A stretch of 64,000 bases of DNA from Lingula anatina (Eukaryota > Animalia > Brachiopoda): assembly GCA_051362555.1 (NCBI GenBank), contig JBPQGU010000013.1, forward strand, positions 248,001 through 312,000. Reading direction: 5' to 3'. Below the pieces are notes generated by a model. It did not search any database and was not told where the DNA came from. It was given only the letters and a program-made list of their open reading frames with translations. Shown here one piece after another: positions 3,001 through 59,112 of this stretch. Each line of letters opens with the position of its first letter. The stretch's first letter is position 1. The translations under genes and the position numbers were made by a program.

Positions 3001-6000
3001 CAGGTGTGCTTTCTGGCAATCTTTAAAGCTGAAATTGGGGGCTTTAATGAAGTGACCCGGGCGCGTTTCCACATTTTTTATGAATGTCAGGTGTGGTAAA
3101 TTAATTTTCATCACTTTTTGGAAAAATTGGTGACGGGTCATTTTTGGGTGATTTTGAGAGATTTTCGTAAGGTCCGGATATGGCAGTTTTCTTCAATTTT
3201 GGCCAGGTAGGGATGAAAAATTTTTTTCTTCAATATTGTGTCAGGTAGGTGTGTTTGGTCATTTGTAGTGAGGGTAAAGTGCTGGAAGAGTGATTGTGTC
3301 ATTATTTAGGAAGAAATAGAGCAAAAACTCTCTCCACCCCCCCCTCTCTCCAAATCCTGTTCTCAGGTGTGCTTTCTGGCAATCTTTAAAGCTGAAATTG
3401 GGGGCTTTAATGAAGTGACCCGGGCGCGTTTCCACATTTTTTATGAATGTCAGGTGTGGTAAATTAATTTTCATCACTTTTTGGAAAAATTGGTGACGGG
3501 TCATTTTTGGGTGATTTTGAGAGATTTTCGTAAGGTCCGGATATGGCAGTTTTCTTCAATTTTGGCCAGGTAGGGATGAAAAATTTTTTTCTTCAATATT
3601 GTGTCAGGTAGGTGTGTTTGGTCATTTGTAGTGAGGGTAAAGTGCTGGAAGAGTGATTGTGTCATTATTTAGGAAGAAATAGAGCAAAAACTCTCTCCAC
3701 CCCCCCTCTCTCCAAATCCTGTTCTCAGGTGTGCTTTCTGGCAATCTTTAAAGCTGAAATTGGGGGCTTTAATGAAGTGACCCGGGCGCGTTTCCACATT
3801 TTTTATGAATGTCAGGTGTGGTAAATTAATTTTCATCACTTTTTGGAAAAATTGGTGACGGGTCATTTTTGGGTGATTTTGAGAGATTTTCGTAAGGTCC
3901 GGATATGGCAGTTTTCTTCAATTTTGGCCAGGTAGGGATGAAAAATTTTTTTCTTCAATATTGTGTCAGGTAGGTGTGTTTGGTCATTTGTAGTGAGGGT
4001 AAAGTGCTGGAAGAGTGATTGTGTCATTATTTAGGAAGAAATAGAGCAAAAACTCTCTCCACCCCCCCTCTCTCCAAATCCTGTTCTCAGGTGTGCTTTC
4101 TGGCAATCTTTAAAGCTGAAATTGGGGGCTTTAATGAAGTGACCCGGGCGCGTTTCCACATTTTTTATGAATGTCAGGTGTGGTAAATTAATTTTCATCA
4201 CTTTTTGGAAAAATTGGTGACGGGTCATTTTTGGGTGATTTTGAGAGATTTTCGTAAGGTCCGGATATGGCAGTTTTCTTCAATTTTGGCCAGGTAGGGA
4301 TGAAAAATTTTTTTCTTCAATATTGTGTCAGGTAGGTGTGTTTGGTCATTTGTAGTGAGGGTAAAGTGCTGGAAGAGTGATTGTGTCATTATTTAGGAAG
4401 AAATAGAGCAAAAACTCTCTCCACCCCCCCTCTCTCCAAATCCTGTTCTCAGGTGTGCTTTCTGGCAATCTTTAAAGCTGAAATTGGGGGCTTTAATGAA
4501 GTGACCCGGGCGCGTTTCCACATTTTTTATGAATGTCAGGTGTGGTAAATTAATTTTCATCACTTTTTGGAAAAATTGGTGACGGGTCATTTTTGGGTGA
4601 TTTTGAGAGATTTTCGTAAGGTCCGGATATGGCAGTTTTCTTCAATTTTGGCCAGGTAGGGATGAAAAATTTTTTTCTTCAATATTGTGTCAGGTAGGTG
4701 TGTTTGGTCATTTGTAGTGAGGGTAAAGTGCTGGAAGAGTGATTGTGTCATTATTTAGGAAGAAATAGAGCAAAAACTCTCTCCACCCCCCCTCTCTCCA
4801 AATCCTGTTCTCAGGTGTGCTTTCTGGCAATCTTTAAAGCTGAAATTGGGGGCTTTAATGAAGTGACCCGGGCGCGTTTCCACATTTTTTATGAATGTCA
4901 GGTGTGGTAAATTAATTTTCATCACTTTTTGGAAAAATTGGTGACGGGTCATTTTTGGGTGATTTTGAGAGATTTTCGTAAGGTCCGGATATGGCAGTTT
5001 TCTTCAATTTTGGCCAGGTAGGGATGAAAAATTTTTTTCTTCAATATTGTGTCAGGTAGGTGTGTTTGGTCATTTGTAGTGAGGGTAAAGTGCTGGAAGA
5101 GTGATTGTGTCATTATTTAGGAAGAAATAGAGCAAAAACTCTCTCCACCCCCCCTCTCTCCAAATCCTGTTCTCAGGTGTGCTTTCTGGCAATCTTTAAA
5201 GCTGAAATTGGGGGCTTTAATGAAGTGACCCGGGCGCGTTTCCACATTTTTTATGAATGTCAGGTGTGGTAAATTAATTTTCATCACTTTTTGGAAAAAT
5301 TGGTGACGGGTCATTTTTGGGTGATTTTGAGAGATTTTCGTAAGGTCCGGATATGGCAGTTTTCTTCAATTTTGGCCAGGTAGGGATGAAAAATTTTTTT
5401 CTTCAATATTGTGTCAGGTAGGTGTGTTTGGTCATTTGTAGTGAGGGTAAAGTGCTGGAAGAGTGATTGTGTCATTATTTAGGAAGAAATAGAGCAAAAA
5501 CTCTCTCCACCCCCCCTCTCTCCAAATCCTGTTCTCAGGTGTGCTTTCTGGCAATCTTTAAAGCTGAAATTGGGGGCTTTAATGAAGTGACCCGGGCGCG
5601 TTTCCACATTTTTTATGAATGTCAGGTGTGGTAAATTAATTTTCATCACTTTTTGGAAAAATTGGTGACGGGTCATTTTTGGGTGATTTTGAGAGATTTT
5701 CGTAAGGTCCGGATATGGCAGTTTTCTTCAATTTTGGCCAGGTAGGGATGAAAAATTTTTTTCTTCAATATTGTGTCAGGTAGGTGTGTTTGGTCATTTG
5801 TAGTGAGGGTAAAGTGCTGGAAGAGTGATTGTGTCATTATTTAGGAAGAAATAGAGCAAAAACTCTCTCCACCCCCCCTCTCTCCAAATCCTGTTCTCAG
5901 GTGTGCTTTCTGGCAATCTTTAAAGCTGAAATTGGGGGCTTTAATGAAGTGACCCGGGCGCGTTTCCACATTTTTTATGAATGTCAGGTGTGGTAAATTA

Positions 6001-9000: not shown

Positions 9001-12000
9001 CAGGTAGGGATGAAAAATTTTTTTCTTCAATATTGTGTCAGGTAGGTGTGTTTGGTCATTTGTAGTGAGGGTAAAGTGCTGGAAGAGTGATTGTGTCATT
9101 ATTTAGGAAGAAATAGAGCAAAAACTCTCTCCACCCCCCCTCTCTCCAAATCCTGTTCTCAGGTGTGCTTTCTGGCAATCTTTAAAGCTGAAATTGGGGG
9201 CTTTAATGAAGTGACCCGGGCGCGTTTCCACATTTTTTATGAATGTCAGGTGTGGTAAATTAATTTTCATCACTTTTTGGAAAAATTGGTGACGGGTCAT
9301 TTTTGGGTGATTTTGAGAGATTTTCGTAAGGTCCGGATATGGCAGTTTTCTTCAATTTTGGCCAGGTAGGGATGAAAAATTTTTTTCTTCAATATTGTGT
9401 CAGGTAGGTGTGTTTGGTCATTTGTAGTGAGGGTAAAGTGCTGGAAGAGTGATTGTGTCATTATTTAGGAAGAAATAGAGCAAAAACTCTCTCCACCCCC
9501 CCTCTCTCCAAATCCTGTTCTCAGGTGTGCTTTCTGGCAATCTTTAAAGCTGAAATTGGGGGCTTTAATGAAGTGACCCGGGCGCGTTTCCACATTTTTT
9601 ATGAATGTCAGGTGTGGTAAATTAATTTTCATCACTTTTTGGAAAAATTGGTGACGGGTCATTTTTGGGTGATTTTGAGAGATTTTCGTAAGGTCCGGAT
9701 ATGACAGTTTTCTTCAATTTTGGCCAGGTAGGGATGAAAAATTTTTTTCTTCAATATTGTGTCAGGTAGGTGTGTTTGGTCATTTGTAGTGAGGGTAAAG
9801 TGCTGGAAGAGTGATTGTGTCATTATTTAGGAAGAAATAGAGCAAAAACTCTCTCCACCCCCCCCTCTCTCCAAATCCTGTTCTCAGGTGTGCTTTCTGG
9901 CAATCTTTAAAGCTGAAATTGGGGGCTTTAATGAAGTGACCCGGGCGCGTTTCCACATTTTTTATGAATGTCAGGTGTGGTAAATTAATTTTCATCACTT
10001 TTTGGAAAAATTGGTGACGGGTCATTTTTGGGTGATTTTGAGAGATTTTCGTAAGGTCCGGATATGGCAGTTTTCTTCAATTTTGGCCAGGTAGGGATGA
10101 AAAATTTTTTTCTTCAATATTGTGTCAGGTAGGTGTGTTTGGTCATTTGTAGTGAGGGTAAAGTGCTGGAAGAGTGATTGTGTCATTATTTAGGAAGAAA
10201 TAGAGCAAAAACTCTCTCCACCCCCCCCTCTCTCCAAATCCTGTTCTCAGGTGTGCTTTCTGGCAATCTTTAAAGCTGAAATTGGGGGCTTTAATGAAGT
10301 GACCCGGGCGCGTTTCCACATTTTTTATGAATGTCAGGTGTGGTAAATTAATTTTCATCACTTTTTGGAAAAATTGGTGACGGGTCATTTTTGGGTGATT
10401 TTGAGAGATTTTCGTAAGGTCCGGATATGGCAGTTTTCTTCAATTTTGGCCAGGTAGGGATGAAAAATTTTTTTTCTTCAATATTGTGTCAGGTAGGTGT
10501 GTTTGGTCATTTGTAGTGAGGGTAAAGTGCTGGAAGAGTGATTGTGTCATTATTTAGGAAGAAATAGAGCAAAAACTCTCTCCACCCCCCCTCTCTCCAA
10601 ATCCTGTTCTCAGGTGTGCTTTCTGGCAATCTTTAAAGCTGAAATTGGGGGCTTTAATGAAGTGACCCGGGCGCGTTTCCACATTTTTTATGAATGTCAG
10701 GTGTGGTAAATTAATTTTCATCACTTTTTGGAAAAATTGGTGACGGGTCATTTTTGGGTGATTTTGAGAGATTTTCGTAAGGTCCGGATATGGCAGTTTT
10801 CTTCAATTTTGGCCAGGTAGGGATGAAAAATTTTTTTCTTCAATATTGTGTCAGGTAGGTGTGTTTGGTCATTTGTAGTGAGGGTAAAGTGCTGGAAGAG
10901 TGATTGTGTCATTATTTAGGAAGAAATAGAGCAAAAACTCTCTCCACCCCCCCTCTCTCCAAATCCTGTTCTCAGGTGTGCTTTCTGGCAATCTTTAAAG
11001 CTGAAATTGGGGGCTTTAATGAAGTGACCCGGGCGCGTTTCCACATTTTTTATGAATGTCAGGTGTGGTAAATTAATTTTCATCACTTTTTGGAAAAATT
11101 GGTGACGGGTCATTTTTGGGTGATTTTGAGAGATTTTCGTAAGGTCCGGATATGGCAGTTTTCTTCAATTTTGGCCAGGTAGGGATGAAAAATTTTTTTC
11201 TTCAATATTGTGTCAGGTAGGTGTGTTTGGTCATTTGTAGTGAGGGTAAAGTGCTGGAAGAGTGATTGTGTCATTATTTAGGAAGAAATAGAGCAAAAAC
11301 TCTCTCCACCCCCCCTCTCTCCAAATCCTGTTCTCAGGTGTGCTTTCTGGCAATCTTTAAAGCTGAAATTGGGGGCTTTAATGAAGTGACCCGGGCGCGT
11401 TTCCACATTTTTTATGAATGTCAGGTGTGGTAAATTAATTTTCATCACTTTTTGGAAAAATTGGTGACGGGTCATTTTTGGGTGATTTTGAGAGATTTTC
11501 GTAAGGTCCGGATATGGCAGTTTTCTTCAATTTTGGCCAGGTAGGGATGAAAAATTTTTTTCTTCAATATTGTGTCAGGTAGGTGTGTTTGGTCATTTGT
11601 AGTGAGGGTAAAGTGCTGGAAGAGTGATTGTGTCATTATTTAGGAAGAAATAGAGCAAAAACTCTCTCCACCCCCCCTCTCTCCAAATCCTGTTCTCAGG
11701 TGTGCTTTCTGGCAATCTTTAAAGCTGAAATTGGGGGCTTTAATGAAGTGACCCGGGCGCGTTTCCACATTTTTTATGAATGTCAGGTGTGGTAAATTAA
11801 TTTTCATCACTTTTTGGAAAAATTGGTGACGGGTCATTTTTGGGTGATTTTGAGAGATTTTCGTAAGGTCCGGATATGGCAGTTTTCTTCAATTTTGGCC
11901 AGGTAGGGATGAAAAATTTTTTTCTTCAATATTGTGTCAGGTAGGTGTGTTTGGTCATTTGTAGTGAGGGTAAAGTGCTGGAAGAGTGATTGTGTCATTA

Positions 12001-18000: not shown

Positions 18001-21000
18001 GGTGATTTTGAGAGATTTTCGTAAGGTCCGGATATGGCAGTTTTCTTCAATTTTGGCCAGGTAGGGATGAAAAATTTTTTTCTTCAATATTGTGTCAGGT
18101 GTGTGTGTTTGGTCATTTGTAGTGAGGGTAAAGTGCTGGAAGAGTGATTGTGTCATTATTTAGGAAGAAATAGAGCAAAAACTCTCTCCACCCCCCCTCT
18201 CTCCAAATCCTGTTCTCAGGTGTGCTTTCTGGCAATCTTTAAAGCTGAAATTGGGGGCTTTAATGAAGTGACCCGGGCGCGTTTCCACATTTTTTATGAA
18301 TGTCAGGTGTGGTAAATTAATTTTCATCACTTTTTGGAAAAATTGGTGACGGGTCATTTTTGGGTGATTTTGAGAGATTTTCGTAAGGTCCGGATATGGC
18401 AGTTTTCTTCAATTTTGGCCAGGTAGGGATGAAAAATTTTTTTCTTCAATATTGTGTCAGGTGTGTGTGTTTGGTCATTTGTAGTGAGGGTAAAGTGCTG
18501 GAAGAGTGATTGTGTCATTATTTAGGAAGAAATAGAGCAAAAACTCTCTCCACCCCCCCTCTCTCCAAATCCTGTTCTCAGGTGTGCTTTCTGGCAATCT
18601 TTAAAGCTGAAATTGGGGGCTTTAATGAAGTGACCCGGGCGCGTTTCCACATTTTTTATGAATGTCAGGTGTGGTAAATTAATTTTCATCACTTTTTGGA
18701 AAAATTGGTGACGGGTCATTTTTGGGTGATTTTGAGAGATTTTCGTAAGGTCCGGATATGGCAGTTTTCTTCAATTTTGGCCAGGTAGGGATGAAAAATT
18801 TTTTTCTTCAATATTGTGTCAGGTGTGTGTGTTTGGTCATTTGTAGTGAGGGTAAAGTGCTGGAAGAGTGATTGTGTCATTATTTACCCCTCTCTCCAAA
18901 TCCTGTTCTTCAGGTGTGCTTTCTGGCAATCTTTAAAGCTGAAATTGGGGGCTTTAATGAAGTGACCCGGGCGCGTTTCCACATTTTTTATGAATGTCAG
19001 GTGTGGTAAATTAATTTTCATCACTTTTTGGAAAAATTGGTGACGGGTCATTTTTGGGTGATTTTGAGAGATTTTCGTAAGGTCCGGATATGGCAGTTTT
19101 CTTCAATTTTGGCCAGGTAGGGATGAAAAATTTTTTTCTTCAATATTGTGTCAGGTAGGTGTGTTTTGGTCATTTGTAGTGAGGGTAAAGTGCTGGAAGA
19201 GGGATTGTGTCATATTTAGGAAGAAATAGAGCAAAAACTCTCTCCACCCCCCCTCTCTCCAAATCCTGTTCTCAGGTGTGCTTTCTGGCAATCTTTAAAG
19301 CTGAAATTGGGGGCTTTAATGAAGTGACCCGGGCGCGTTTCCACATTTTTTATGAATGTCAGGTGTGGTAAATTAATTTTCATCACTTTTTGGAAAAATT
19401 GGTGACGGGTCATTTTTGGGTGATTTTGAGAGATTTTCGTAAGGTCCGGATATGGCAGTTTTCTTCAATTTTGGCCAGGTAGGGATGAAAAATTTTTTTC
19501 TTCAATATTGTGTCAGGTAGGTGTGTTTGGTCATTTGTAGTGAGGGTAAAGTGCTGGAAGAGGGATTGTGTCATTATTTAGGAAGAAATAGAGCAAAAAC
19601 TCTCTCCACCCCCCCTCTCTCCAAATCCTGTTCTCAGGTGTGCTTTCTGGCAATCTTTAAAGCTGAAATTGGGGCTTTAATGAAGTGACCCGGGCGCGTT
19701 TCCACATTTTTTATGAATGTCAGGTGTGGTAAATTAATTTTCATCACTTTTTGGAAAAATTGGTGACGGGTCATTTTTGGGTGATTTTGAGAGATTTTCG
19801 TAAGGTCCGGATATGGCAGTTTTCTTCAATTTTGGCCAGGTAGGGATGAAAAATTTTTTTCTTCAATATTGTGTCAGGTAGGTGTGTTTGGTCATTTGTA
19901 GTGAGGGTAAAGTGCTGGAAGAGGGATTGTGTCATTATTTAGGAAGAAATAGAGCAAAAACTCTCTCCACCCCCCCTCTCTCCAAATCCTGTTCTCAGGT
20001 GTGCTTTCTGGCAATCTTTAAAGCTGAAATTGGGGGCTTTAATGAAGTGACCCGGGCGCGTTTCCACATTTTTTATGAATGTCAGGTGTGGTAAATTAAT
20101 TTTCATCACTTTTTGGAAAAATTGGTGACGGGTCATTTTTGGGTGATTTTGAGAGATTTTCGTAAGGTCCGGATATGGCAGTTTTCTTCAATTTTGGCCA
20201 GGTAGGGATGAAAAATTTTTTTCTTCAATATTGTGTCAGGTAGGTGTGTTTGGTCATTTGTAGTGAGGGTAAAGTGCTGGAAGAGGGATTGTGTCATTAT
20301 TTAGGAAGAAATAGAGCAAAAACTCTCTCCACCCCCCCTCTCTCCAAATCCTGTTCTCAGGTGTGCTTTCTGGCAATCTTTAAAGCTGAAATTGGGGGCT
20401 TTAATGAAGTGACCCGGGCGCGTTTCCACATTTTTTATGAATGTCAGGTGTGGTAAATTAATTTTCATCACTTTTTGGAAAAATTGGTGACGGGTCATTT
20501 TTGGGTGATTTTGAGAGATTTTCGTAAGGTCCGGATATGGCAGTTTTCTTCAATTTTGGCCAGGTAGGGATGAAAAATTTTTTTCTTCAATATTGTGTCA
20601 GGTAGGTGTGTTTGGTCATTTGTAGTGAGGGTAAAGTGCTGGAAGAGGGATTGTGTCATTATTTAGGAAGAAATAGAGCAAAAACTCTCTCCACCCCCCC
20701 TCTCTCCAAATCCTGTTCTCAGGTGTGCTTTCTGGCAATCTTTAAAGCTGAAATTGGGGGCTTTAATGAAGTGACCCGGGCGCGTTTCCACATTTTTTAT
20801 GAATGTCAGGTGTGGTAAATTAATTTTCATCACTTTTTGGAAAAATTGGTGACGGGTCATTTTTGGGTGATTTTGAGAGATTTTCGTAAGGTCCGGATAT
20901 GGCAGTTTTCTTCAATTTTGGCCAGGTAGGGATGAAAAATTTTTTTCTTCAATATTGTGTCAGGTAGGTGTGTTTGGTCATTTGTAGTGAGGGTAAAGTG

Positions 21001-43706: not shown

Positions 43707-44502
43707 CCCTCGCACACCTGTAGACCTTCAGCTCCTTCCCGCCCTTCCTCAGAGTTCCAGTCTGGGTGTACAGAGAGACCCCTTCGACGTCCTGGAGGCA
43801 TGGTATGTGGCGCTGTTGAGAGGCCCACATGTCTTGCACTCTCTCGTGATCAAGGAGAGGTACTCCTAGCGCGTCGCACCCCCTGATCACTGTCCAGCGT
43901 GTCGACCAGCGACTGCAAGAGACGAGTGGTTTCAGCTACACCGCGGGTGCGGCGACGGCAGTGTTTCTCTAACTCCTTGCGCGAGATGTGCTGCATGATG
44001 TTGTCTGGGCTGACGCCAGCGCCCTGTAGTTGTAGTTGGCCCAGCTTGGCATCTCGAAGTGCTGCCAGATCATCTGCGTCCCACTCAAAAATGCAGGCAG
44101 ACAACTTCTTCATGAAGACGGCGTATAGTGGGTGGCTTTCCGTGGTGACACAGGAGGCGAACCTGCGCATGAAGTGCCACACGTCCAGTCGCACCACCAG
44201 ATGGGGCCAGCCAGCAAACAGCTTCTTGACATTGCAGGGACCGGAGGTGGAGCAGCAGTCCCTGTCAACATACATCACCTTGGGTGGAGGCTGTTCACTG
44301 AGCTGGTACCGCCCTCACGAGGCCCTGGGCCATCTTGGTCAGGCCAGCTCCCTCCTGAGCAGTGAGTACTGAGGTCAGTACCTGGCCGTGTTCATTGCCC
44401 ACGTTGGTGCACCAGGCAGCTGAGCCTGCAGCCTCTCCTGCCAGCTTTTTGGCTACCTGAAAAACGGAGGGGGGAAATATGACACTTAATACATTTTCTT
44501 AA

Positions 44503-44543
<41 letters not shown>

Positions 44544-47500
44544 TTTGTTGTTTTGTTTTCAAAACTGTTCACTGTACAAAGTTTAAGAGAGCAAATCAGA
44601 ACAAAAACTGTACATACCTTTTTGGTGGAGTCCATCTTCAAGACGGATCCAAAGGTGGAGGTCACCTTGGCTTTGATCTCATCAAGCCTCAACAACACGT
44701 CACGGACCAGCACAGTTTGTAGCCATGCTGGCCCCGGGAGTCTTTCAAAGGGTAACGGCTGAAGAGGACTTGTTCTCTGCACAAGGGATGAGCTGGCAAA
44801 CTTGTCTACAACTGAGAGGAAATTGGCTACCCTGCTTAGCCAATCCCTGGTGTGCTGCTCACACAGTTGCTTACTCAGCCGAGTAGTGCTGTTCCCAAGA
44901 GATCGCTCTCTCAGGAGAGAAACTACCCGGGTAGAGCAAGAGTACCTGCAACAAAGAATCAAGAACAGAATAAGTTATAAATGTAAAGACAGAGTTATTT
45001 TGTCCGCTGAAATAGATTTTCAAATGAACTGATATTAAATGCAAGAATTCCATAAATTAAAAAAAGAAAAAAAAAAGAAAAGTTTTGAAATTACCTGTAT
45101 GTGAGCAGTGCTGGAAATTTCCCCCTTGTCGCCACGTCCAGCTGTTGGAGGATTTCCCCACTCCAACCCGCATACTTCTTGTGACAGGCGCCGCACTCCA
45201 GGTACTCAGTGCCCATGTAAAAGTAGCCATCGATGTCAAGGACGCGGCGGACAGTCTTGAAGAAACCGCAGGATGTTAACTGGCGACCCTTGCATGATGG
45301 CACAGAGCAAGACAGCTGAGCCCTGAACATGCGGCGTGGCATCCAGAGGAAGAAGGGGTGGGTGAAGAAAGGCCCTGCTGTTCTAGGGGGCTGGGCGTGG
45401 ACCAGTCTGGGTGATGGTGGGTGCCACCACAGCTGCAGCTCTTGCTTCAGTTGGCCCCGGCGGGTGGTAAACAAGGCACGGGAAACCCACTGTGCTTCAT
45501 GTGGTGGCAGGCTGGCCTTCCATGACAGAGGGATCAGATCAGTGTCATCCACGGGCACTGGAACAAGTGAAGAGCAATAAGTACAAAATAATAGAGGGGG
45601 GAAACCTGAAATAAAAGAAAATCATGAACATATATCACACTTTACAAGAGCTGACATACTTTCTCATTACTTTTAAAAATTACTCATTCTTACTTATCAT
45701 GTATCTTCTGCATTGGAGGTTATTAAAAGTAACAGATTAATCACTGCTTGGACTTTGTTTACTTTATGGTCAATAGTTATCATTTAAATACATCCTCATA
45801 TCTTTAACCTTATCACCCACAAACAAAAAAAAGTTATTGCATGTTCAGCTCTTTTATGCTAATCTACAGGCAATACAAACACCAACCACCTCACAGTAAG
45901 GAACCCACAGTAATGCAGAAAAAAAAAAAAAGGAAAGCGAAAAAGCGAAAAAGAAAACAAAACCAAAGTGCTGCTGCTGCTGCTGTGCTGTCACCTTCCA
46001 AAACATATAAAAAGAAAACACACCACATGCTACAAGTGTCAGTGAATAAGCCACGTGTGCATTAATAATAAATAAAACAATAAAACTCTGAAAGCTTGAT
46101 TTCAAACTCACCAACACCTGTCCTCCAAAGACTGTGAAAAGAAAACAGGTACAAGAACAATAGAACACTCTTAATGTTTTACATTCTGTTTTACACTATT
46201 TTCTTTCATTACACTTTGCGCGATTAATTTTATAAAAAATCTTAAAATTCACAATCTAAGCTGTGCAGATTTTCATGAAGGAATTCTTCTTGTCATCATC
46301 ACCTTGGCAGGAGGGCTGGGGCGGTATGTGATATGTCACAGACAAAACACTTAATGTAAGGTCAGCAGCTAGGAGTTAACTTTTTGCTCACTGAAAATTG
46401 ACTGGTTAATTTCCAAATTGAATTGACTGGTTAATTTCCAAATTGAATCCCAGCTGTGACCTCAAATTGTTCATGGAAAAGAAACAAAAAGTCTTTACCT
46501 GAATCTGGCAGGGAGCTCTGCCTTTTGGTCTCCTGTTGGGGTATGGTGTCAGGAGCGGCAGCTGTACTGGTGCCAGCACCAGCTGAGGCAGGGACAGGTA
46601 GCTCTGGGCGTTCCAAGTCGCTCACTTCCTCAGGGTCTACGGCTGTCGCTTTAAATGAACAAAATTAGAATATACTGAAGTAAAAGTGGCAACAACTGTA
46701 AAAAGATGTTAGAAAGCTACTCTTAAAACAAGGGTCCTTACGTCAATGAAATTACCATGAATTACATTTACCTCTGGTGGTGGGTTTAGGTTTCTTGGCA
46801 ACGGCGGGTTGTTGGTGCTGTCTGGGGCAGGAAGGGGGGCGTCCACCACTTCCACATCCTCAGACTTGGGCAGGGTCGCCGTTGCTGGAAAAAAAAAAAA
46901 ATGAATAACGGAATAAATACACTGATACAGAAGCACACATCAACTATTAAATTTGAAAAAAAAAAAAAAAAAATGTGTGTAATAATACATGTGTCATTTA
47001 CCTCTTCTTGATTTCTTAAGATTGGGTGTTGGCCCTGGGGGACCAAGCTGTCTCTTCACTCCAGCTTTGAGCCCTGCTGGTGACAGATGACTGCCGACCA
47101 TGAGGCTCTGAAGTGAGCTGGAGGATACTGGGACAGGCTTGGCAGGTGGTGTGGGTTTTGCCTGCCTCTCCTTGGTCTTGGCAGCAATAGCCTCCCGACC
47201 CTGGGGGAACAGCTCAAGGTACTCCTATGTGAAGTCAATAAAGGTGATTAAGACAGGTACCCTGACAATAAAGGCATTGTCCAATTGAAATGAATGTTAA
47301 TTACTATCATCTCTTTCAATAATGGAAACTAGTACAACTGATTTATATTACTGTGTGTGCTAAGATACAAACAATGCGTTGTACCTTTCCTGGGAGGTGA
47401 CCTTCAGTCCGACTAGTTTGTGTTACAAGACCACTTTAACAATACTAGATATCAGTGACTTGAGGACAGATATGTCAGATACTTAAACTATGATGTTTGT

Positions 47501-48333: not shown

Positions 48334-48553
48334 GTTGAATAGCTTGTGCTTGACGACTCCTGTACCACGTGACCTCTTTTCTGCGGCCGTAATTCGCTGA
48401 TTTCGCCTACGTCATCGCTGATTTTCGACCAGATCGCTGATTTTGGGTTTGTGATTGGTTGGAATCGCTGATTTGAGGAAAATCAGCGATGACGTATGCA
48501 TGAGTCGTCATGTGATTCGGGGTCACTCTACAGAGAAGCTACGCATGTCCCCT
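48334..48553 (-). promoter_or_regulatory. Terminal/promoter region of copy 1 (TCGCTGATTT repeats, 19-bp inverted repeat, CCAAT, CACGTG)
   Basis: TCGCTGATTT at 48394, 48415, 48434 and 48465, inverted at 48480. Perfect 19-bp inverted repeat at 48408-48426 / 48478-48496. Lies between the element end and the ATG. Confidence 0.6.
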
Positions 48554-48559
48554 GCGCAA
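48554..48559 (+). other. GCGCAA target-site duplication / spacer between tandem copies 1 and 2
   Basis: Context is CCT|GCGCAA|AGG. ACAGAGAAG (48530-48538) and its reverse complement CTTCTCTGT (48575-48583) each lie exactly 15 nt from the hexamer. GCGCAA is the U6 ISL-loop sequence described as the Dada-U6 TSD. Confidence 0.85.
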
Positions 48560-49364
48560 AGGAACCCACTCAATCTTCTCTGTCGGCCCAGCGCAAAAAA
48601 GAAAAAAAGAAAAAAGGCAAAAAATGCGAAAATTACGCCAAAAATCCCGGGGCGGATGGGGGCAATTTCGGCGCGCAACTTGGCACCAGATGCGTTTCAA
48701 GCCCCAAAAACGATTAAAAACGTTAGTGCGCACCTGGAATGTTTGCCGTGGCCGGGTGAATGGTTCCCCCCTAAAGAAAGGACCCCACGCCTAGTTCCTG
48801 TAAACATTGCGGTTTGTTGTGGTCACATGACCGTGTCACAGTAGCCGACGGCCAAATGACCGTTAACATCGTCAAAAAAGGCCCTTCTCACTGCTCCTGC
48901 AGTTGAGAAATGTGCTTACAAAGTAGCAAATTGACAAACGCAAACAAAACACAGCATCAAAATACAGAACGAAAGTGCCGGCGTTATAACGAAAGTGCAT
49001 AACGAAAGTGCATGTGTATGCAAATGCAAATCGCCAAAAACGGGCCAAACTTGCGCCCTCTAGGAGTTAAGTAGGAGTTAAGACCCAGATCTTGGCTGAA
49101 TAGCGTCGCCTAATGCGTTTTGCATGCTAAAAAAACGTAAATAACCTTGGTTGTGACAGATTGCTACAGTTGAGATCGTGGTGGGGAAAAGAAGGGGAGG
49201 GGGGGGGAATACAGAAACGTGCTCTGCATTCTACTTTCAATTTACTTGTACTGTTCATCAAAATTAAATTAAATGTACAAATTCCGTTTTATTTTCAGTT
49301 TACTGTTTTTTTTTAAAATCAATATACAAATTGAAACAAAGAATGCAGGTTGTATATGAATCAA

Positions 49365-49370
49365 TTTATT
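49365..49370 (-). terminator. Candidate polyadenylation signal (AATAAA) for the transposase mRNA
   Basis: First canonical AATAAA I found downstream of the stop codon at 50108. A second lies at 49288-49293 and an ATTAAA variant at 49449-49454. Which is used is unknown. Confidence 0.45.
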
Positions 49371-49478
49371 GAACCTCAATGCAGATAGCAGTTTTTTTCT
49401 GCGTTTTGTAGTTGCATAAATGATTGAAATAAGTCAGTGATTTTTTTTTTTAATATATATATATATATATAAATAGAT

Positions 49479-49910
49479 GATAGTCCAGCTGTCTTGTTGT
49501 TTTTGCATCACAGTTGCATTGAATAAGTAGGTGATAGTCCAGCTATCTTGGAACAAATTATTGCACAGTTGTTTTTGCATCGCAGTTGCATTGAATAAGT
49601 AGGTGATAGTCCAGCTATCTTGGAACAAATTATTGCAGAGTTGTTTTTGCATCGCAGTTGCATTGAATAAGTAGGTGATAGTCCAGCTATCTTGGAACAA
49701 ATTATTGCACAGTTGTTATTGCATCGCAGTTGCATTGAATAAGTAGGTGATAGTCCAGCTATCTTGGAACAAATTATTGCACAGTTGTTTTTGCATCGCA
49801 GTTGCATTGAATAAGTAGGTGATAGTCCAGCTATCTTGGAACAAATTATTGCACAGTTGTTTTTGCATTGCAGTTGCATTGAATAAATAAGAGATAGTCC
49901 AGCTATCCTT
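49479..49910. repeat. 72-bp minisatellite (about 5.5-6 units) in the predicted transposase 3' UTR, copy 2
   Basis: GATAGTCCAGCTATC recurs at 49533, 49605, 49677, 49749, 49821 and 49893 (72-bp period), with a shortened unit at 49479. Confidence 0.95.
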
Positions 49911-50107
49911 GAATAAGTGAATTGCCAGCTAACCAAGCTATTGCACACTTCCCTTGCATTGTTTGTTGCATTAATGACAGTCCAGCTGTCTGTGTATAAA
50001 TATATGATGACAGTCCAGCTGTCTTTGTATAATTAAATAAAAAATGACACTCCAGCTGTCGAGAATAATGTCATTTTGGGAAGACACAGTCCTTATTTAT
50101 ACTGCCC

Positions 50108-53100
50108 TCACTGTTGTTGTTGTTGTTGTTGTTCTAAGAGGGCCTTCATTCGTTCCTTCCAGGCTAAGTACGTCAGGCCCTCTGCGTTGTCAGGGCAGTA
50201 TGTATGGCCACGGTAGCCGCTATGACCCGCCTGGATGTTGCGTGGTTTTCCACATTTCTTACAGTTGTTTGTTTTTCTGGTCCTCTTAGCCACAACCGGA
50301 GCTGGTGTAGTTGACTGTGGAAGTGGTTGGGACCAGGGTGGAAAACCTGGTATTGGGGTCATCACCGTGGGTGCGAAGGTGGTCCACTGGGCGGGTGCTG
50401 GTGCCAACTGGTGCGGCAGAATGCCAGGTGGAAAAAATCCAACAGGTTGTGGGACCACGACCACTTGTTTGGACTGTGTCTCTGTTGCGCGGGCTGGCTT
50501 CATCTTCTTCTTCTTCTTCTTCTTCCCATCTCTTCTCAGCACCGCAGTGCCTGTGGTGTCTTTAGGCAGGTGGTACTGGTGCGGTGTTCCAGAGGGCACT
50601 GGCAGCCGCGGTAGCAGCTGCCTGGCAGCAGGCAGCGGTGTTGTTGCTGTTGCAGGAGGAGCGGGCAGGGACATCCCCTGTAGAAGGGAGGCCCTGTACT
50701 GCTCATCTGTAGTCCTGTTGTGCCTATGGAAGAAAAGAAAAAAAAAGAATAATCAGGAAATAATCTTTAAATATTCTTAAATCTGAAAGAAAATAAAAAA
50801 TAAAAACTGAAATGAAATTGGAAAAAAAAAAAAAAAAAAGCACTAGCAATATCATTGTATCAGTTTAATTGGTGACTTTTCAGGAATCTAATTTAAGTGA
50901 GGAATTAACATTTTACAATGTTGCTGTGACAGTCGAGTCAGTTGAGAAATTACCATGTATGTAGTGTCCTCATGTTTATGGAGAAGAGCTGGAGGGTTGT
51001 TTTTTCCATCACACGGGCGTTGTTGAAAAGGAGCCTGGTGATCCTCTCATAGTCCCGCATGATGACTCCCCACGGGTGTTGTCTTTTGCCTCCCTTCCAC
51101 GGAGCATCATGGGCCTCCATTAGTTGCATTATGACGGCCTCCACTACCCTGGATTCGGAAGGCTCACGCGCAGGGGTGCCAGTCCCCAGCATGCACCTGA
51201 AAGTACAAAGGAAAAACTTAATTTTTTCTTGTATTATTATTATTATTATTATTATTATTTGGTCTATTTCATGCCAATATCTTCTGAAAAATAAGTGTTA
51301 ATACAATCTTAGCTGAAAAAAAAAAAAAAAAAACTTACTTCTTGACACTCTCCACCCCAGGAGTGATGGTGTTCTTGGAAGAGGCAAATCGCCCCTTTGT
51401 GTGCCTCCTCTTGAAGTGTGGAGTGTAACGGAGGCGTTGTTTGTCCATTTCTGGCAACGCCTCCCAGTGGTGGATTATCTTCTCCACATCTTCGGTTAGG
51501 AGGCACTCCCTCTCGATGGTACGTAGGGAGACGAGTACAGAAGCCAGCTTCGTTACGGCATCATAACCGGGGATATGATGTCTGTCCACTGACTCTGAAG
51601 TCTCATCTACCTTGGGTGTTGGTTCTTCAAGGGGCACCTCTTCTGGAAAGTAAAAAAAAAATATGCCGATATAATGAGGGGGGAGGGGAAAAAAGAAATA
51701 TCACCTGAAAAAAAAAAAAAATAAATAAAATAACCTTGTGTGAACAGAACAGGGCAACTGACTTGCATAGCTACATATCTGGAATTAACATATAAAGAAA
51801 AATAATAATAATAATAAAGAAATAATAATAATAATTACAATAGTAATAATCTAAAAATTTACCTTCTCTGGGTGGAGAGGTATTGGTTGCCTCTGTCACG
51901 GAGGAGGTGTGTGGTCTGGGAGGGATGTGGAATACAGGGTCCTCGTCAGCATCTGCAATTGTGGGATCACAGTCTTCAGAGAACCCCTCATCATCAGCAT
52001 CTTCCTCCACTGTCTCGACAACCTCCTCCTCGGGTGCATCTGGGTCCAGTTTTACAGGTTCTAGGGCCTTTCCCGTCTGATCGAGCAGGTACTCGCACCC
52101 TAGAAGCTCACCTGGAAGTAAAGAGAGAAATGAGAGAATTATTAGTAGCAGGCCTCATTTTTTTTTTCATGTATTTATTTATTTATTTATTTATTTATTT
52201 TTTCCAAAAATAATTTCTTGGCTGCAATTACATCTAAACTAATTATATTCCTATAAATTACACGAAACCTAAATCACTTTAATTACCAGTGTATTTCCTG
52301 GGGACCACAGCATTTGGCACGATGGTATTGCCAAGCACCCGTTCTCCCAGATGGTTCACTGCCTGGACGAGCTGTCCATCATAGCAGCGAAGTTCGGTGT
52401 CCCCATTGTCAATTGCGGCCAGCGCACGATCCTGGTTCCACCGAACAATTCCTTCCAGGATGTAGGCTTGGAAATTTGTGGCAGAGGCACTTTGTCCTGT
52501 TAAAAACAAGAAAAAAGGGAGAAAATTAGCTGCAAGTGTTCAATAACCACAAATTTTCAACAAAAATGTTAAGTTTAATTTAACAAGTACCAATGCATCA
52601 AAATTAAGTCAGTCTAAAGTGATTTTAAATCTACTTTCAGGTAACCAAGCAGTCTGTCGGTGTGTGTGGTTGTGCTTACCGGGAATGAATCTAACAATAT
52701 GAGAATGGAAGCTCTCCAGGGAAACTGAGCCCCTCGCACACCTGTAGACCTTCAGCTCCTTCCCGCCCTTCCTCAGAGTTCCAGTCTGGGTGTACAGAGA
52801 GACCCCTTCGACGTCCTGGAGGCATGGTATGTGGCGCTGTTGAGAGGCCCACATGTCTTGCACTCTCTCGTGATCAAGGAGAGGTACTCCTAGCGCGTCG
52901 CACCCCTGATCACTGTCCAGCGTGTCGACCAGCGACTGCAAGAGACGAGTGGTTTCAGCTACACCGCGGGTGCGGCGACGGCAGTGTTTCTCTAACTCCT
53001 TGCGCGAGATGTGCTGCATGATGTTGTCTGGGCTGACGCCAGCGCCCTGTAGTTGTAGTTGGCCCAGCTTGGCATCTCGAAGTGCTGCCAGATCATCTGC

Positions 53101-53531
53101 GTCCCACTCAAAAATGCAGGCAGACAACTTCTTCATGAAGACGGCGTATAGTGGGTGGCTTTCCGTGGTGACACAGGAGGCGAACCTGCGCATGAAGTGC
53201 CACACGTCCAGTCGCACCACCAGATGGGGCCAGCCAGCAAACAGCTTCTTGACATTGCAGGGACCGGAGGTGGAGCAGCAGTCCCTGTCAACATACATCA
53301 CCTTGGGTGGAGGCTGTTCACTGAGCTGGTACCGCCTCACGAGGCCCTGGGCCATCTTGGTCAGGCCAGCTCCCTCCTGAGCAGTGAGTACTGAGGTCAG
53401 TACCTGGCCGTGTTCATTGCCCACGTTGGTGCACCAGGCAGCTGAGCCTGCAGCCTCTCCTGCCAGCTTTTTGGCTACCTGAAAAACGGAGGGGGGAAAT
53501 ATGACACTTAATACATTTTCTTAAAGAAATT

Positions 53532-53565
<34 letters not shown>

Positions 53566-56500
53566 TTTGTTGTTTTGTTTTCAAAACTGTTCACTGTACA
53601 AAGTTTAAGAGAGCAAATCAGAACAAAAACTGTACATACCTTTTTGGTGGAGTCCATCTTCAAGACGGATCCAAAGGTGGAGGTCACCTTGGCTTTGATC
53701 TCATCAAGCCTCAACAACACGTCACGGACCAGCACAGTTTGTAGCCATGCTGGCCCCGGGAGTCTTTCAAAGGGTAACGGCTGAAGAGGACTTGTTCTCT
53801 GCACAAGGGATGAGCTGGCAAACTTGTCTACAACTGAGAGGAAATTGGCTACCCTGCTTAGCCAATCCCTGGTGTGCTGCTCACACAGTTGCTTACTCAG
53901 CCGAGTAGTGCTGTTCCCAAGAGATCGCTCTCTCAGGAGAGAAACTACCCGGGTAGAGCAAGAGTACCTGCAACAAAGAATCAAGAACAGAATAAGTTAT
54001 AAATGTAAAGACAGAGTTATTTTGTCCGCTGAAATAGATTTTCAAATGAACTGATATTAAATGCAAGAATTCCATAAATTAAAAAAAGAAAAAAAAAGAA
54101 AAGTTTTGAAATTACCTGTATGTGAGCAGTGCTGGAAATTTCCCCCTTGTCGCCACGTCCAGCTGTTGGAGGATTTCCCCACTCCAACCCGCATACTTCT
54201 TGTGACAGGCGCCGCACTCCAGGTACTCAGTGCCCATGTAAAAGTAGCCATCGATGTCAAGGACGCGGCGGACAGTCTTGAAGAAACCGCAGGATGTTAA
54301 CTGGCGACCCTTGCATGATGGCACAGAGCAAGACAGCTGAGCCCTGAACATGCGGCGTGGCATCCAGAGGAAGAAGGGGTGGGTGAAGAAAGGCCCTGCT
54401 GTTCTAGGGGGCTGGGCGTGGACCAGTCTGGGTGATGGTGGGTGCCACCACAGCTGCAGCTCTTGCTTCAGTTGGCCCCGGCGGGTGGTAAACAAGGCAC
54501 GGGAAACCCACTGTGCTTCATGTGGTGGCAGGCTGGCCTTCCATGACAGAGGGATCAGATCAGTGTCATCCACGGGCACTGGAACAAGTGAAGAGCAATA
54601 AGTACAAAATAATAGAGGGGGAAACCTGAAATAAAAGAAAATCATGAACATATATCACACTTTACAAGAGCTGACATACTTTCTCATTACTTTTAAAAAT
54701 TACTCATTCTTACTTATCATGTATCTTCTGCATTGGAGGTTATTAAAAGTAACAGATTAATCACTGCTTGGACTTTGTTTACTTTATGGTCAATAGTTAT
54801 CATTTAAATACATCCTCATATCTTTAACCTTATCACCCACAAACAAAAAAAAGTTATTGCATGTTCAGCTCTTTTATGCTAATCTACAGGCAATACAAAC
54901 ACCAACCACCTCACAGTAAGGAACCCACAGTAATGCAGAAAAAAAAAAAAAGGAAAGCGAAAAAGCGAAAAAGAAAACAAAACCAAAGTGCTGCTGCTGC
55001 TGCTGTGCTGTCACCTTCCAAAACATATAAAAAGAAAACACACCACATGCTACAAGTGTCAGTGAATAAGCCACGTGTGCATTAATAATAAATAAAACAA
55101 TAAAACTCTGAAAGCTTGATTTCAAACTCACCAACACCTGTCCTCCAAAGACTGTGAAAAGAAAACAGGTACAAGAACAATAGAACACTCTTAATGTTTT
55201 ACATTCTGTTTTACACTATTTTCTTTCATTACACTTTGCGCGATTAATTTTATAAAAAATCTTAAAATTCACAATCTAAGCTGTGCAGATTTTCATGAAG
55301 GAATTCTTCTTGTCATCATCACCTTGGCAGGAGGGCTGGGGCGGTATGTGATATGTCACAGACAAAACACTTAATGTAAGGTCAGCAGCTAGGAGTTAAC
55401 TTTTTGCTCACTGAAAATTGACTGGTTAATTTCCAAATTGAATTGACTGGTTAATTTCCAAATTGAATCCCAGCTGTGACCTCAAATTGTTCATGGAAAA
55501 GAAACAAAAAGTCTTTACCTGAATCTGGCAGGGAGCTCTGCCTTTTGGTCTCCTGTTGGGGTATGGTGTCAGGAGCGGCAGCTGTACTGGTGCCAGCACC
55601 AGCTGAGGCAGGGACAGGTAGCTCTGGGCGTTCCAAGTCGCTCACTTCCTCAGGGTCTACGGCTGTCGCTTTAAATGAACAAAATTAGAATATACTGAAG
55701 TAAAAGTGGCAACAACTGTAAAAAGATGTTAGAAAGCTACTCTTAAAACAAGGGTCCTTACGTCAATGAAATTACCATGAATTACATTTACCTCTGGTGG
55801 TGGGTTTAGGTTTCTTGGCAACGGCGGTGTTGGTGCTGTCTGGGGCAGGAAGGGGGGCGTCCACCACTTCCACATCCTCAGACTTGGGCAGGGTCGCCGT
55901 TGCTGGAAAAAAAAAAAAATGAATAACGGAATAAATACACTGATACAGAAGCACACATCAACTATTAAATTTGAAAAAAAAAAAAAAAAAATGTGTGTAA
56001 TAATACATGTGTCATTTACCTCTTCTTGATTTCTTAAGATTGGGTGTTGGCCCTGGGGGACCAAGCTGTCTCTTCACTCCAGCTTTGAGCCCTGCTGGTG
56101 ACAGATGACTGCCGACCATGAGGCTCTGAAGTGAGCTGGAGGATACTGGGACAGGCTTGGCAGGTGGTGTGGGTTTTGCCTGCCTCTCCTTGGTCTTGGC
56201 AGCAATAGCCTCCCGACCCTGGGGGAACAGCTCAAGGTACTCCTATGTGAAGTCAATAAAGGTGATTAAGACAGGTACCCTGACAATAAAGGCATTGTCC
56301 AATTGAAATGAATGTTAATTACTATCATCTCTTTCAATAATGGAAACTAGTACAACTGATTTATATTACTGTGTGTGCTAAGATACAAACAATGCGTTGT
56401 ACCTTTCCTGGGAGGTGACCTTCAGTCCGACTAGTTTGTGTTACAAGACCACTTTAACAATACTAGATATCAGTGACTTGAGGACAGATATGTCAGATAC

Positions 56501-57347
56501 TTAAACTATGATGTTTGTCTGTATCCACAGTAACTGAATACTTGAAGTATTATTCACCACAAACCAGTATAACACCAATGAAAGACTTATAAAAGACATG
56601 GGGAGGGGGGGGGGGGGTGCAGACAACTAACCTTACACCATGGGGCATTACTTTCAATCTTTCAATACCTTACACATTACATATAGTAAGGCAATCAAAA
56701 AAGATTTAAAAGGAAAGATTTTACCTTGAGCTTGTATTTGTTCACACCCAGCGGGCCGGGGTGTGGAGTCTCCCTGCTCAGACTCTCTGCCAAGTAGGCG
56801 GCATACCCCAGGGAGTTCTCGACCAGCCACCGGAAGGTCTGCCCCCGGTATTTTCCAAACTGCAGCCTGTGATGCCCCAGAAGGTGTTTCTTGTCGGTGA
56901 CATCCAGGCCGAGCTGGATGACTGCAGACCTGGCCTCCTCCGCAACCTTCTCCGGTGGTTTGGCAGCGGCGGTGAGGGAGGCAGTGGCTGCAGAAGCAGC
57001 AGCCCTCCTCGCGGCGTTACTCTCACCGAGCGTCAGTGCTCCATCCGACCTCCTCCTGAACACTGGGTCGCTTGATCTGGTCGAGGGGAGTGGCGTTTTC
57101 GGTTCATCTGCAAAGAAATCCAGACATGTCATGTCGAGCACCCACCCACGTGGATTTTTCCCGCGAAAAGGTAATTATTGCGATAAAAGCGGAAAGGTGC
57201 AACTGGTTGCGCCGACTGATACGTCGGCGTGCTCGGTACTACTTGAGCTTTTCATCGGTGTCGGTGTTTAAATTATCTAGTCCGTTTAAAGCGAGCAACG
57301 GGCAGGTGAATCGCTGAGTCGAGAGAAAACTTACCTCTTGTCGCCAT
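50108..57347 (-). CDS. Dada-type DDE transposase (MuDR/IS256-related fold, probably DUF6729-containing), 13 exons, ~1363 aa, apparently intact
   Basis: Hand-spliced GT-AG exons (minus strand): 57347-57335, 57107-56725, 56242-56020, 55902-55792, 55668-55519, 54578-54116, 53967-53640, 53478-52680, 52496-52287, 52111-51863, 51642-51339, 51196-50954, 50723-50108. All phases are compatible and the total is 4092 nt. Motifs: KMDSTKK (D1), YVDRDCC (D2), RLDVWH (DxxH), RGSVSLESFH (E), N-terminal Cys pairs CSVPSC...ECGAC and C-terminal C-x2-C-x9-H-x8-C. Exons 1, 4 and 5 (low-complexity linker) are the least certain. Confidence 0.85.
55416..55465. repeat. 25-bp tandem duplication in transposase intron 5
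   Basis: AATTGACTGGTTAATTTCCAAATTG occurs twice in a row; also present in copy 1 near 46396-46445. Confidence 0.9.
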
Positions 57348-57567
57348 GTTGAATAGCTTGTGCTTGACGACTCCTGTACCACGTGACCTCTTTTCTGCGG
57401 CCGTAATTCGCTGATTTCGCCTACGTCATCGCTGATTTTCGACCAGATCGCTGATTTTGGGTTTGTGATTGGTTGGAATCGCTGATTTGAGGAAAATCAG
57501 CGATGACGTATGCATGAGTCGTCATGTGATTCGGGGTCACTCTACAGAGAAGCTACGCATGTCCCCT
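57348..57567 (-). promoter_or_regulatory. Terminal/promoter region of copy 2
   Basis: 220 bp between the element end and the ATG. CCAAT (minus strand, 57468-57472), GTCACGTG E-box (CACGTG at 57380-57385), two TGACGT half-CRE motifs within a 19-bp inverted repeat (57422-57440 / 57492-57510), and five TCGCTGATTT copies. Promoter activity is inferred. Confidence 0.6.
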
Positions 57568-57573
57568 GCGCAA
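57568..57573 (+). other. GCGCAA target-site duplication / spacer between tandem copies 2 and 3
   Basis: Identical context to 48554: ACAGAGAAG at 57544-57552 and CTTCTCTGT at 57589-57597. Confidence 0.85.
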
Positions 57574-58483
57574 AGGAACCCACTCAATCTTCTCTGTCGG
57601 CCCAGCGCAAAAAAGAAAAAAAGAAAAAGGCAAAAAATGCGAAAATTACGCCAAAAATCCCGGGGCGGATGGGGCAATTTCGGCGCGCAACTTGGCACCA
57701 GATGCGTTTCAAGCCCCAAAAACGATTAAAAACGTTAGTGCGCACCTGGAATGTTTGCCGTGGCCGGGTGAATGGTTCCCCCCTAAAGAAAGGACCCCAC
57801 GCCTAGTTCCTGTAAACATTGCGGTTTGTTGTGGTCACATGACCGTGTCACAGTAGCCGACGGCCAAATGACCGTTAACATCGTCAAAAAAGGCCCTTCT
57901 CCTGCTCCTGCAGTTGAGAAATGTGCTACAAAGTAGCAAATTGACAAACGCAAACAAAACACAGCATCAAAATACAGAACGAAAGTGCCCGGCGTTATAA
58001 CGAAAGTGCATAACGAAAGTGCATGTGTATGCAAATGCAAATCGCCAAAAACGGGCCAAACTTGCGCCCTCTAGGAGTTAAGTAGGAGTTAAGACCCAGA
58101 TCTTGGCTGAATAGCGTCGCCTAATGCGTTTGCATGCTAAAAAAACGTAAATAACCTTGGTTGTGACAGATTGCTACAGTTGAGATCGTGGTGGGGAAAG
58201 AAGGGGAGGGGGGGGAATACAGAAACGTGCTCTGCATTCTACTTTCAATTTACTTGTACTGTTCATCAAAATTAAATTAAATGTACAAATTCCGTTTTAT
58301 TTTCAGTTTACTGTTTTTTTTAAAATCAATATACAAATTGAAACAAAGAATGCAGGTTGTATATGAATCAAATTTATTGAACCTCAATGCAGATAGCAGT
58401 TTTTTTCTGCGTTGTAGTTGCATAAATGATTGAAATAAGTCAGTGATTTTTTTTTTAATATATATATATATATATAAATAGAT

Positions 58484-58915
58484 GATAGTCCAGCTGTCTT
58501 GTTGTTTTTGCATCACAGTTGCATTGAATAAGTAGGTGATAGTCCAGCTATCTTGGAACAAATTATTGCACAGTTGTTTTTGCATCGCAGTTGCATTGAA
58601 TAAGTAGGTGATAGTCCAGCTATCTTGGAACAAATTATTGCAGAGTTGTTTTTGCATCGCAGTTGCATTGAATAAGTAGGTGATAGTCCAGCTATCTTGG
58701 AACAAATTATTGCACAGTTGTTATTGCATCGCAGTTGCATTGAATAAGTAGGTGATAGTCCAGCTATCTTGGAACAAATTATTGCACAGTTGTTTTTGCA
58801 TCGCAGTTGCATTGAATAAGTAGGTGATAGTCCAGCTATCTTGGAACAAATTATTGCACAGTTGTTTTTGCATTGCAGTTGCATTGAATAAATAAGAGAT
58901 AGTCCAGCTATCCTT
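58484..58915. repeat. 72-bp minisatellite, copy 3
   Basis: Same as 49479-49910 at an offset of +9005. Confidence 0.95.
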
Positions 58916-59112
58916 GAATAAGTGAATTGCCAGCTAACCAAGCTATTGCACACTTCCCTTGCATTGTTTGTTGCATTAATGACAGTCCAGCTGTCTGTGT
59001 ATAAATATATGATGACAGTCCAGCTGTCTTTGTATAATTAAATAAAAAATGACACTCCAGCTGTCGAGAATAATGTCATTTTGGGAAGACACAGTCCTTA
59101 TTTATACTGCCC

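Follow-up and report, generated by a model that had tools for sequence, protein, structure and literature searches.

The analysed DNA, a stretch of 64,000 nucleotides here called the window, is occupied by a 362-bp satellite and, beyond it, by head-to-tail units of a Dada-U6 DNA transposon, one of which is complete (Table 1). The register of the satellite is broken at 18886/18887. The satellite abuts the left Dada copy at 43707, within the catalytic exon, and this copy consequently lacks its 3' half. Its exons differ from those of the intact middle copy by one- or two-base insertions at 43879, 44312, 46808-46809, and 47781, which represent either decay or long-read errors. No tRNA genes were found in the window.

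Dada-U6 elements are described as carrying a GCGCAA or GCGAAA duplication and sub-terminal TCTTCTCTG / CAGAGAAGA repeats, without terminal inverted repeats (PMC3706591, available part). Self-comparison of the window likewise gave no inverted match of the kind expected for terminal inverted repeats, and the sequence-only reading of this DNA, which had named the element a Dada transposon, was borne out and narrowed to Dada-U6 by the transposase motifs, the GCGCAA duplication, and the sub-terminal repeat, all of which were found. The element also shares with Dada-U6 its length of approximately 9 kb, an intron-containing DDE transposase of approximately 1360-1400 amino acids with DxxH and zinc-finger motifs, and a gene that runs opposite to the U6 sense at the junction; like Dada-U1, it occurs in tandem copies (PMC3706591 and PMC8869645, as far as available). 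It differs from described Dada-U6 elements in its distance from known proteins, in grouping with metagenome copies, and in the absence of an intact U6 half from the window. These sequence characters make it a new Dada-U6 element.

The 1363-amino-acid open reading frame contains the motifs KMDSTKK (551), YVDRDCC (619), DVWH (648), and SLESFH (810), as well as Cys motifs at 377, 414, and 1313-1325; DDE, DxxH, N-terminal CCCC-type, and C-terminal CCHC-type motifs and DUF6729 were recognized. Among 507 protein matches, the closest database proteins were 61-65% identical over the catalytic exon; judged by these relatives, the element belongs to an animal host. In a metagenome scan, 195 relatives were confirmed and 80 kept; 13 had a C-terminal zinc finger. 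Viral and prokaryotic collections yielded no relatives. A FastTree phylogeny of 125 catalytic-exon sequences, built from 49 proteins kept out of 120 or fewer and from all usable loci, placed the window copy with metagenome-derived copies and not with fish proteins: it grouped with loci L010 and L035 (0.98) and, at the next level, with the clade to which L021 belongs (0.96).

The element end beside the duplication (48497-48563 and 57511-57577, plus strand) is similar to the U6 5' half over more than the 9-bp repeat already published. This match, to Rfam U6 positions 1-71, was weak (20.8 bits against a gathering score of 44, E 0.36). L021, the closest relative with homologous termini (tandem junction 44/60 identical), has a junction of Dada-U6 type at 9078 and retains the distal part of the U6-like end, not the 15 bases that adjoin the duplication. 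A U6-like element end may recreate the target and explain the head-to-tail arrays. An intact U6 gene half was absent from the 64-kb window, in which the left copy is cut by the satellite at 43707 and the right copy runs off the edge. Elsewhere, a Dada relative in L071 is directly flanked by a U6 5' half (4485-4554, minus strand, Rfam 61 bits), and the ends of L046 and L069 show the U6-flank junction pattern. An extended, imperfect inverted repeat in which short motifs recur (48402-48502 and 57416-57516) lies just upstream of the transposase start; it drew a weak Rfam match to MIR5048 (E 0.21) and possibly provides promoter or end-binding sites. Rfam returned only these weak hits, to U6 and MIR5048 and close to the junctions, and no family over the hairpin array described below.

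Table 1. Coordinates of the features discussed in the text; positions are those of the window except in the last row.
Feature	Position	Strand	Remarks
362-bp satellite	1-43706		~120 copies, 99% identity
Head-to-tail Dada-U6 units, ~9.0 kb each	rest of window after satellite		from self-comparison
Complete Dada-U6 unit, ~9.0 kb	48560..57567	-	flanking units 99.75% identical
GCGCAA at tandem junctions, the Dada-U6 target-site duplication	48554-48559 and 57568-57573	+	PMC3706591 (available part)
Sub-terminal TCTTCTCTG	48574..48582, again at 57588	+	published Dada-U6 repeat, PMC3706591 (available part)
Partner CAGAGAAG at opposite end	57545-57552, also at 48531		matches 8/9 published bases
Dada transposase, 13 exons, 1363 aa	50108..57347	-	12/12 introns GT-AG, no internal stop
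Transposase stop codon	50108-50110	-	
TATAAA, weak variant poly(A) signal	50096..50101	-	candidate, upstream of array
ATTAAA, variant poly(A) signal	49449..49454	-	candidate, 25 nt past last hairpin
First canonical AATAAA	49365..49370	-	candidate, downstream of array
CUGGA-loop hairpin motif array	49479..50060	-	8 perfect, 2 one-mismatch, 1 decayed copy; 3' of stop codon
Copy A	50046..50060	-	G-G mismatch at loop-closing pair; predicted SRE probability 0.00
Copy B, GACAG-CTGGA-CTGTC	50009-50023	-	C-G middle pair
Copy C, GACAG-CTGGA-CTGTC	49976-49990	-	C-G middle pair
Copy C', eleventh	49920-49933	-	decayed: CUGG retained, stem gone
Copies D-I, GATAG-CTGGA-CTATC	49893, 49821, 49749, 49677, 49605, 49533	-	U-A middle pair
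72-bp minisatellite	49496..49907	-	5.7 copies, 97% matches (TRF); holds D-I
Copy J	49479..49493	-	C-A mismatch at middle pair
Same array in next tandem unit	58484..59065	-	no independent support
Post-stop repeat of relative L021, 86-bp x 4	8165-8515 of L021		two predicted hairpins per unit (z -1.79)

Between the transposase stop codon and the first canonical AATAAA, both of which lay where the sequence-only reading had put them, runs an array of short hairpin motifs with a CUGGA loop. All ten motifs of that reading were recovered on the minus strand at their positions, as was the repetition of the array in the next tandem unit; an eleventh, decayed copy (C') was added. The window held 20 motif matches against 2.3 ± 1.5 expected, a number reached in 0 of 100 shuffles, and even with up to three mismatches the motif was confined within the window to the two arrays. 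Unit lengths along the array are 37, 33, 48+9, 26, five times 72, and 54, followed by the last copy. Copies B and C are also able to pair with each other (49976..50023). Copy J combines the left arm of one stem type with the right arm of the other and would be either an intermediate or a chimera between the two. We dismissed a 174-amino-acid stop-to-stop frame that extends over the array (49508-50032), since the 72-bp repeat produces it; because the copies lie in different reading frames, coding does not account for the hairpins. Each 72-bp unit spacer contains one ATGCAAA motif, and two overlapping ones occur near 49030 (49025-49031); we take these motifs to be octamer-like.

The loop of the Smaug recognition element (SRE) is given as CNGGN0-3, and the strongest predictors of Smaug binding are CUGG, a G just 5' of the loop, and a five-base loop (PMC4053848, available part including its section 9). 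All three predictors are present in the array motif, which thus has the optimal SRE form; the match to the Smaug consensus that the sequence-only reading had proposed was therefore confirmed and sharpened. By sequence, 8 of the 11 copies place a CNGGN loop on a stem. Shuffled 72-nt units contained a 5-bp Watson-Crick CNGGN hairpin at a frequency of 0.00046-0.00055 and the optimal SRE form at 0.00001 (300,000 shuffles), or roughly 1 in 100,000, which speaks against a neutral origin of the motif. Pentaloop hairpins with a 5-bp stem and any loop sequence occurred in 8.7% of shuffled units, a figure in favour of a neutral origin. When CUGG was planted in shuffled units, the SRE probability reached at most 0.03 in 150 trials, against 0.33 observed with the same protocol. 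A scan of large size will, however, encounter such motifs by chance.

Predicted folding energies of the isolated hairpins ranged from -3.8 to -5.7 kcal/mol. In context, folding was predicted for 7 of the 11 copies with probabilities of 0.28-0.68 at 25°C (0.43-0.68 for each of D-I), while copies A, B, C', and J remained at 0.00-0.01. Summed SRE probability, calculated with a reduced version of the sampling method of PMC4053848 whose scale is not to be equated with the published one, was 3.47 on the sense and 0.00 on the antisense strand; the array thus holds approximately 3.5 SREs per 0.6 kb, against 2.47 over the whole 4.1-kb coding sequence with its 100 CNGG sites. With 150-nt flanks at 37°C, closing-pair probabilities dropped to 0.00-0.32. 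The fold of the whole region was no better than that of shuffled sequences (z +1.18; 18 of 20 shuffles as good) because the repeats pair with each other.

The sequence-only reading had regarded the hairpin itself as the conserved unit, on the ground that the proximal copies lie outside the 72-bp repeat with differing spacers. This argument was not supported: those spacers are homologous to, though diverged from, the 72-bp spacer. Alignment of the spacers of copies C and E gave 32 matches, 9 mismatches, and 3 internal gaps, a score reached in 0 of 500 shuffles; the spacer that follows copy C has the decayed copy C' at its end. TRF identified the proximal three hairpins as a tandem repeat of 37 bp as well. 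The whole array is therefore one tandem family, its copies descend from one amplified unit and are not independent, and the shuffle figures count once. The closest rival reading is a neutral minisatellite: an inverted repeat that had arisen by chance around a CUGGA spacer would have been multiplied passively as tandem duplications expanded an AT-rich part of the element that readily forms repeats. We hold this reading to be almost as probable as the Smaug-type element discussed below, and likewise at less than an even chance. The homologous spacers and the broken state of copies A, C', and J both favour it.

The hairpin variants number five: two pair perfectly, with either C-G or U-A in the middle, and A, C', and J are broken. 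The compensatory pair described in the sequence-only reading is real insofar as one stem pair changes on both sides, from C-G to U-A; as covariation it was not significant, with a score that rests on this one pair and was reached in 46 of 500 shuffles. Among the eight distinct units, 85% of stem cells pair. On a neutral account, the paired change would be two transitions through a J-like intermediate or the product of a template switch from one arm to the other. At short inverted repeats, such switching homogenizes the arms and can give paired changes without selection (PMC8604942, available part). That both amplified variants pair perfectly is less readily expected under neutrality. Without C', hairpins differed at 4 of 45 positions and spacers at 17 of 74 (Fisher p 0.04, with pairs that are not independent); with C' included, these values were 7 of 59 and 17 of 86 (p 0.15, with the same dependence), so that an excess of hairpin conservation over spacer appears borderline. 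AGCUGG was invariant in all eight distinct units, an observation that is partly circular because the units were split on AGCUGG; this sequence corresponds to the part of the hairpin, 5' stem plus loop, with which the SAM domain of Vts1 makes contact (PMC4053848, available part). Taken together, the within-array evidence gives weak to moderate support for selection on the hairpin.

Twelve relatives with a recognisable last exon and stop codon were scored over 86-800 nt downstream. Enrichment of such hairpins in related Dada elements, a check proposed with the sequence-only reading, was mostly not observed: none of the 12 post-stop regions contained the strict pentaloop hairpin, a result that favours neutrality, and L021 carries a looser array. 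When a bulge or loops of another size were allowed, loose matches numbered five in L021, two in L028, and two in L035, with summed folding probabilities of 0.16, 0.30, and 0.00, respectively; L035 is the nearest of these in the tree. In L021, one of the two hairpins of the repeat has a bulged stem topped by CUGGAC, and its loop and right arm match those of the window locally at 13 of 14 positions (P 0.027, uncorrected), which is a point against the neutral account, with the reservation that a loose match occurred in 12% of shuffled L021 units. By its sequence, a possible splice donor at the L021 stop codon could make that array intronic. A 16-base exact match to copy A (window 50048-50063) lies approximately 135-151 nt after the stop codon of L028 (0 of 200 shuffles); it was set aside as support, being in the most distant clade, without an SRE fold there, and one of 12 comparisons.

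Post-stop tandem repeats as such occurred in 4 of the 12 loci (L020, L021, L048, and L049). In the available post-stop regions of 6 of 23 fish Dada-U6 entries, inspected by eye, most showed tandem duplications and none a CUGG hairpin array. Such repeats in relatives and fish entries that lack CUGG arrays again point toward a neutral minisatellite. An exact-core search of the available supplement of PMC8869645 (121 families), in which matches split by 70-base line breaks can be missed, gave 19 occurrences of the 9-base core, all scattered singles and none in an array, and two (both coding) and zero occurrences of longer cores. The array thus appears lineage-specific at most, in a region that seems prone to minisatellites anyway.

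Four of nine RNA runs from the same species, of which 6-25% was read, were aligned to 49908-52520. Transcript levels were very low, with 32 reads in run X11, 13 in X13, 2 in X17 (90-95% identity), and 0 in X14. The intact transposase gene is expressed: depth lay on exons and was near zero on introns, sense reads were exon-restricted over the last four exons, and nearly all read pairs were oriented as expected for a minus-strand transcript. No splice joints reached the listing threshold in the four runs over 49908-52520. In X13, one sense read spans 49908 to approximately 50050, which places copies A to C' in at least one transcript; one read extends past the limit of the aligned stretch. In X11, none of the 32 reads fell at 49908-50083. 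In favour of the array as part of the transposase mRNA are its position 3' of the stop codon and the one sense read into copies A-C'; against it are the gap in X11 and the weak TATAAA signal upstream of the array. At nine sites (50403-52010) the RNA reads disagree with the window. Transcription thus comes from other alleles or copies of the element, and their 3' regions may be unlike the one described here.

In HBV and HCMV, this CNGGN pentaloop serves as the ZCCHC14 site (PMC11055085 and PMC11508327, available parts), and SAMD4A/B degrade HBV RNA via an SRE-like site (PMC9893680, available part). The loop alone does not tell the outcome. By analogy with these viruses, the SAM domain of ZCCHC14 might bind the pentaloops and recruit TENT4, whose mixed tails would slow deadenylation and raise transposase output. 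A selfish element could profit from such a stable message, and the loop evidence for Smaug applies equally to ZCCHC14. HBV PRE stem-loop alpha and HCMV SL2.7 likewise present a CNGGN pentaloop on RNA that belongs to a genetic parasite, but, in the available parts of the sources, they are single, longer stem-loops of approximately 20-24 nt with demonstrated mixed tailing, whereas the array strings together many predicted 15-nt hairpins, each on a stem of 5 bp. In addition, the array motif fits the Smaug optimum, and the low read counts in the portion of the runs examined do not suggest a stabilized message. Stabilization by ZCCHC14-TENT4, the role also offered in the sequence-only reading, is in our judgement improbable, and Smaug-type repression would be the likelier of the two.

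The sequence-only reading had further suggested that the palindromes are double-stranded DNA sites for the transposase; a host factor could also be considered. The motif is indeed an interrupted palindrome, the C-type copies contain CAGCTG, presumably an E-box, and other DDE transposons have sub-terminal binding repeats. Against this, each unit has one internal cluster, 920-1500 bp from one end, and none at the other. L021 keeps the termini but not the palindrome, and the end signal shared among Dada-U6 elements is the 9-bp sub-terminal repeat, which the window element possesses (PMC3706591, available part). A function as DNA sites comparable to sub-terminal repeats would, on this distribution, be very improbable.

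The reading that we tentatively prefer, while holding it at somewhat less than an even chance, is that the array is a Smaug/SAMD4-type repressive element. A Dada-U6 lineage would have amplified one hairpin motif by tandem duplication 3' of the transposase stop codon; the copies would fold in the mRNA into SREs, as predicted for 7 of the 11, and host Smaug/SAMD4 would likely bind them, with repression of translation and deadenylation of the transposase message. This scenario supposes that most transcripts end beyond the array, that a SAM-domain protein binds with repression as the outcome, and that selection keeps the hairpin; on the neutral reading, a SAM protein might still bind, without selection for binding. 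The benefit would be a restraint on transposase in Smaug-containing cells or stages, in parallel to the control of nanos mRNA by the elements of its 3' UTR. Smaug elements (nanos 3' UTR and Hsp83 ORF, bound by Smaug/Vts1/SAMD4A/B) share with the array a CNGGN loop on a short stem, the optimal G-CUGG-N pentaloop, several copies per transcript, and, in nanos, the 3' UTR position (available parts of the sources); the array differs in being a minisatellite of 72-nt period in a DNA transposon, with several broken copies and putative binding.

We counted in favour of Smaug-type repression the optimal motif, the sense-only signal, the compensatory pair, the AGCUGG invariance, the X13 read, and the L021 array, and against it the shared ancestor of the copies, the broken A, C', and J, the non-significant covariation, the poor global fold, the 0 of 12 relatives, and the X11 gap. 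The feature is real and fits the optimal Smaug element far better than would be expected by chance for one unit, yet it is one motif amplified, and the support from covariation, relatives, and reads is thin. Smaug-type repression and the neutral minisatellite are accordingly nearly tied, and the likelihoods expressed for all four readings are judgements and not computed values. Of the sequence-only interpretation, the assignment to Dada, now Dada-U6, the post-stop array, and the match to the Smaug consensus, now seen to be of optimal form, stand; the argument from the hairpin as conserved unit is not supported. In a more specific form of the Smaug reading, which seems rather unlikely to us, an SRE multiplexed from a minisatellite would act as a nanos-like switch, shutting transposase off in somatic cells, or once the maternal-to-zygotic transition has passed, and leaving it on in the germ line, and the CUGGAC array of L021 would be a diverged second version.

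The words hairpin, stem-loop, and untranslated are absent from the main text of both Dada papers, and the available parts of PMC3706591 and PMC8869645 hold nothing on RNA-level control of Dada. In the literature on Dada, Smaug, SAMD4, and ZCCHC14 with transposons, within a coverage that included few subscription papers, we found no report of such an element.

For few families of DNA transposons, to our knowledge, is it known how transposase is restricted to the cells in which it is useful. A neutral array would serve as a warning that motif statistics are inflated by tandem copies. If it works, a transposon would have borrowed a host developmental RNA switch, as used by maternal mRNAs and viruses, and would tune it by repeat number. 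The array offers a compact natural test of Smaug-type decay against ZCCHC14-type stabilization on one loop, and it would further be relevant to the use of Dada for targeted gene delivery.
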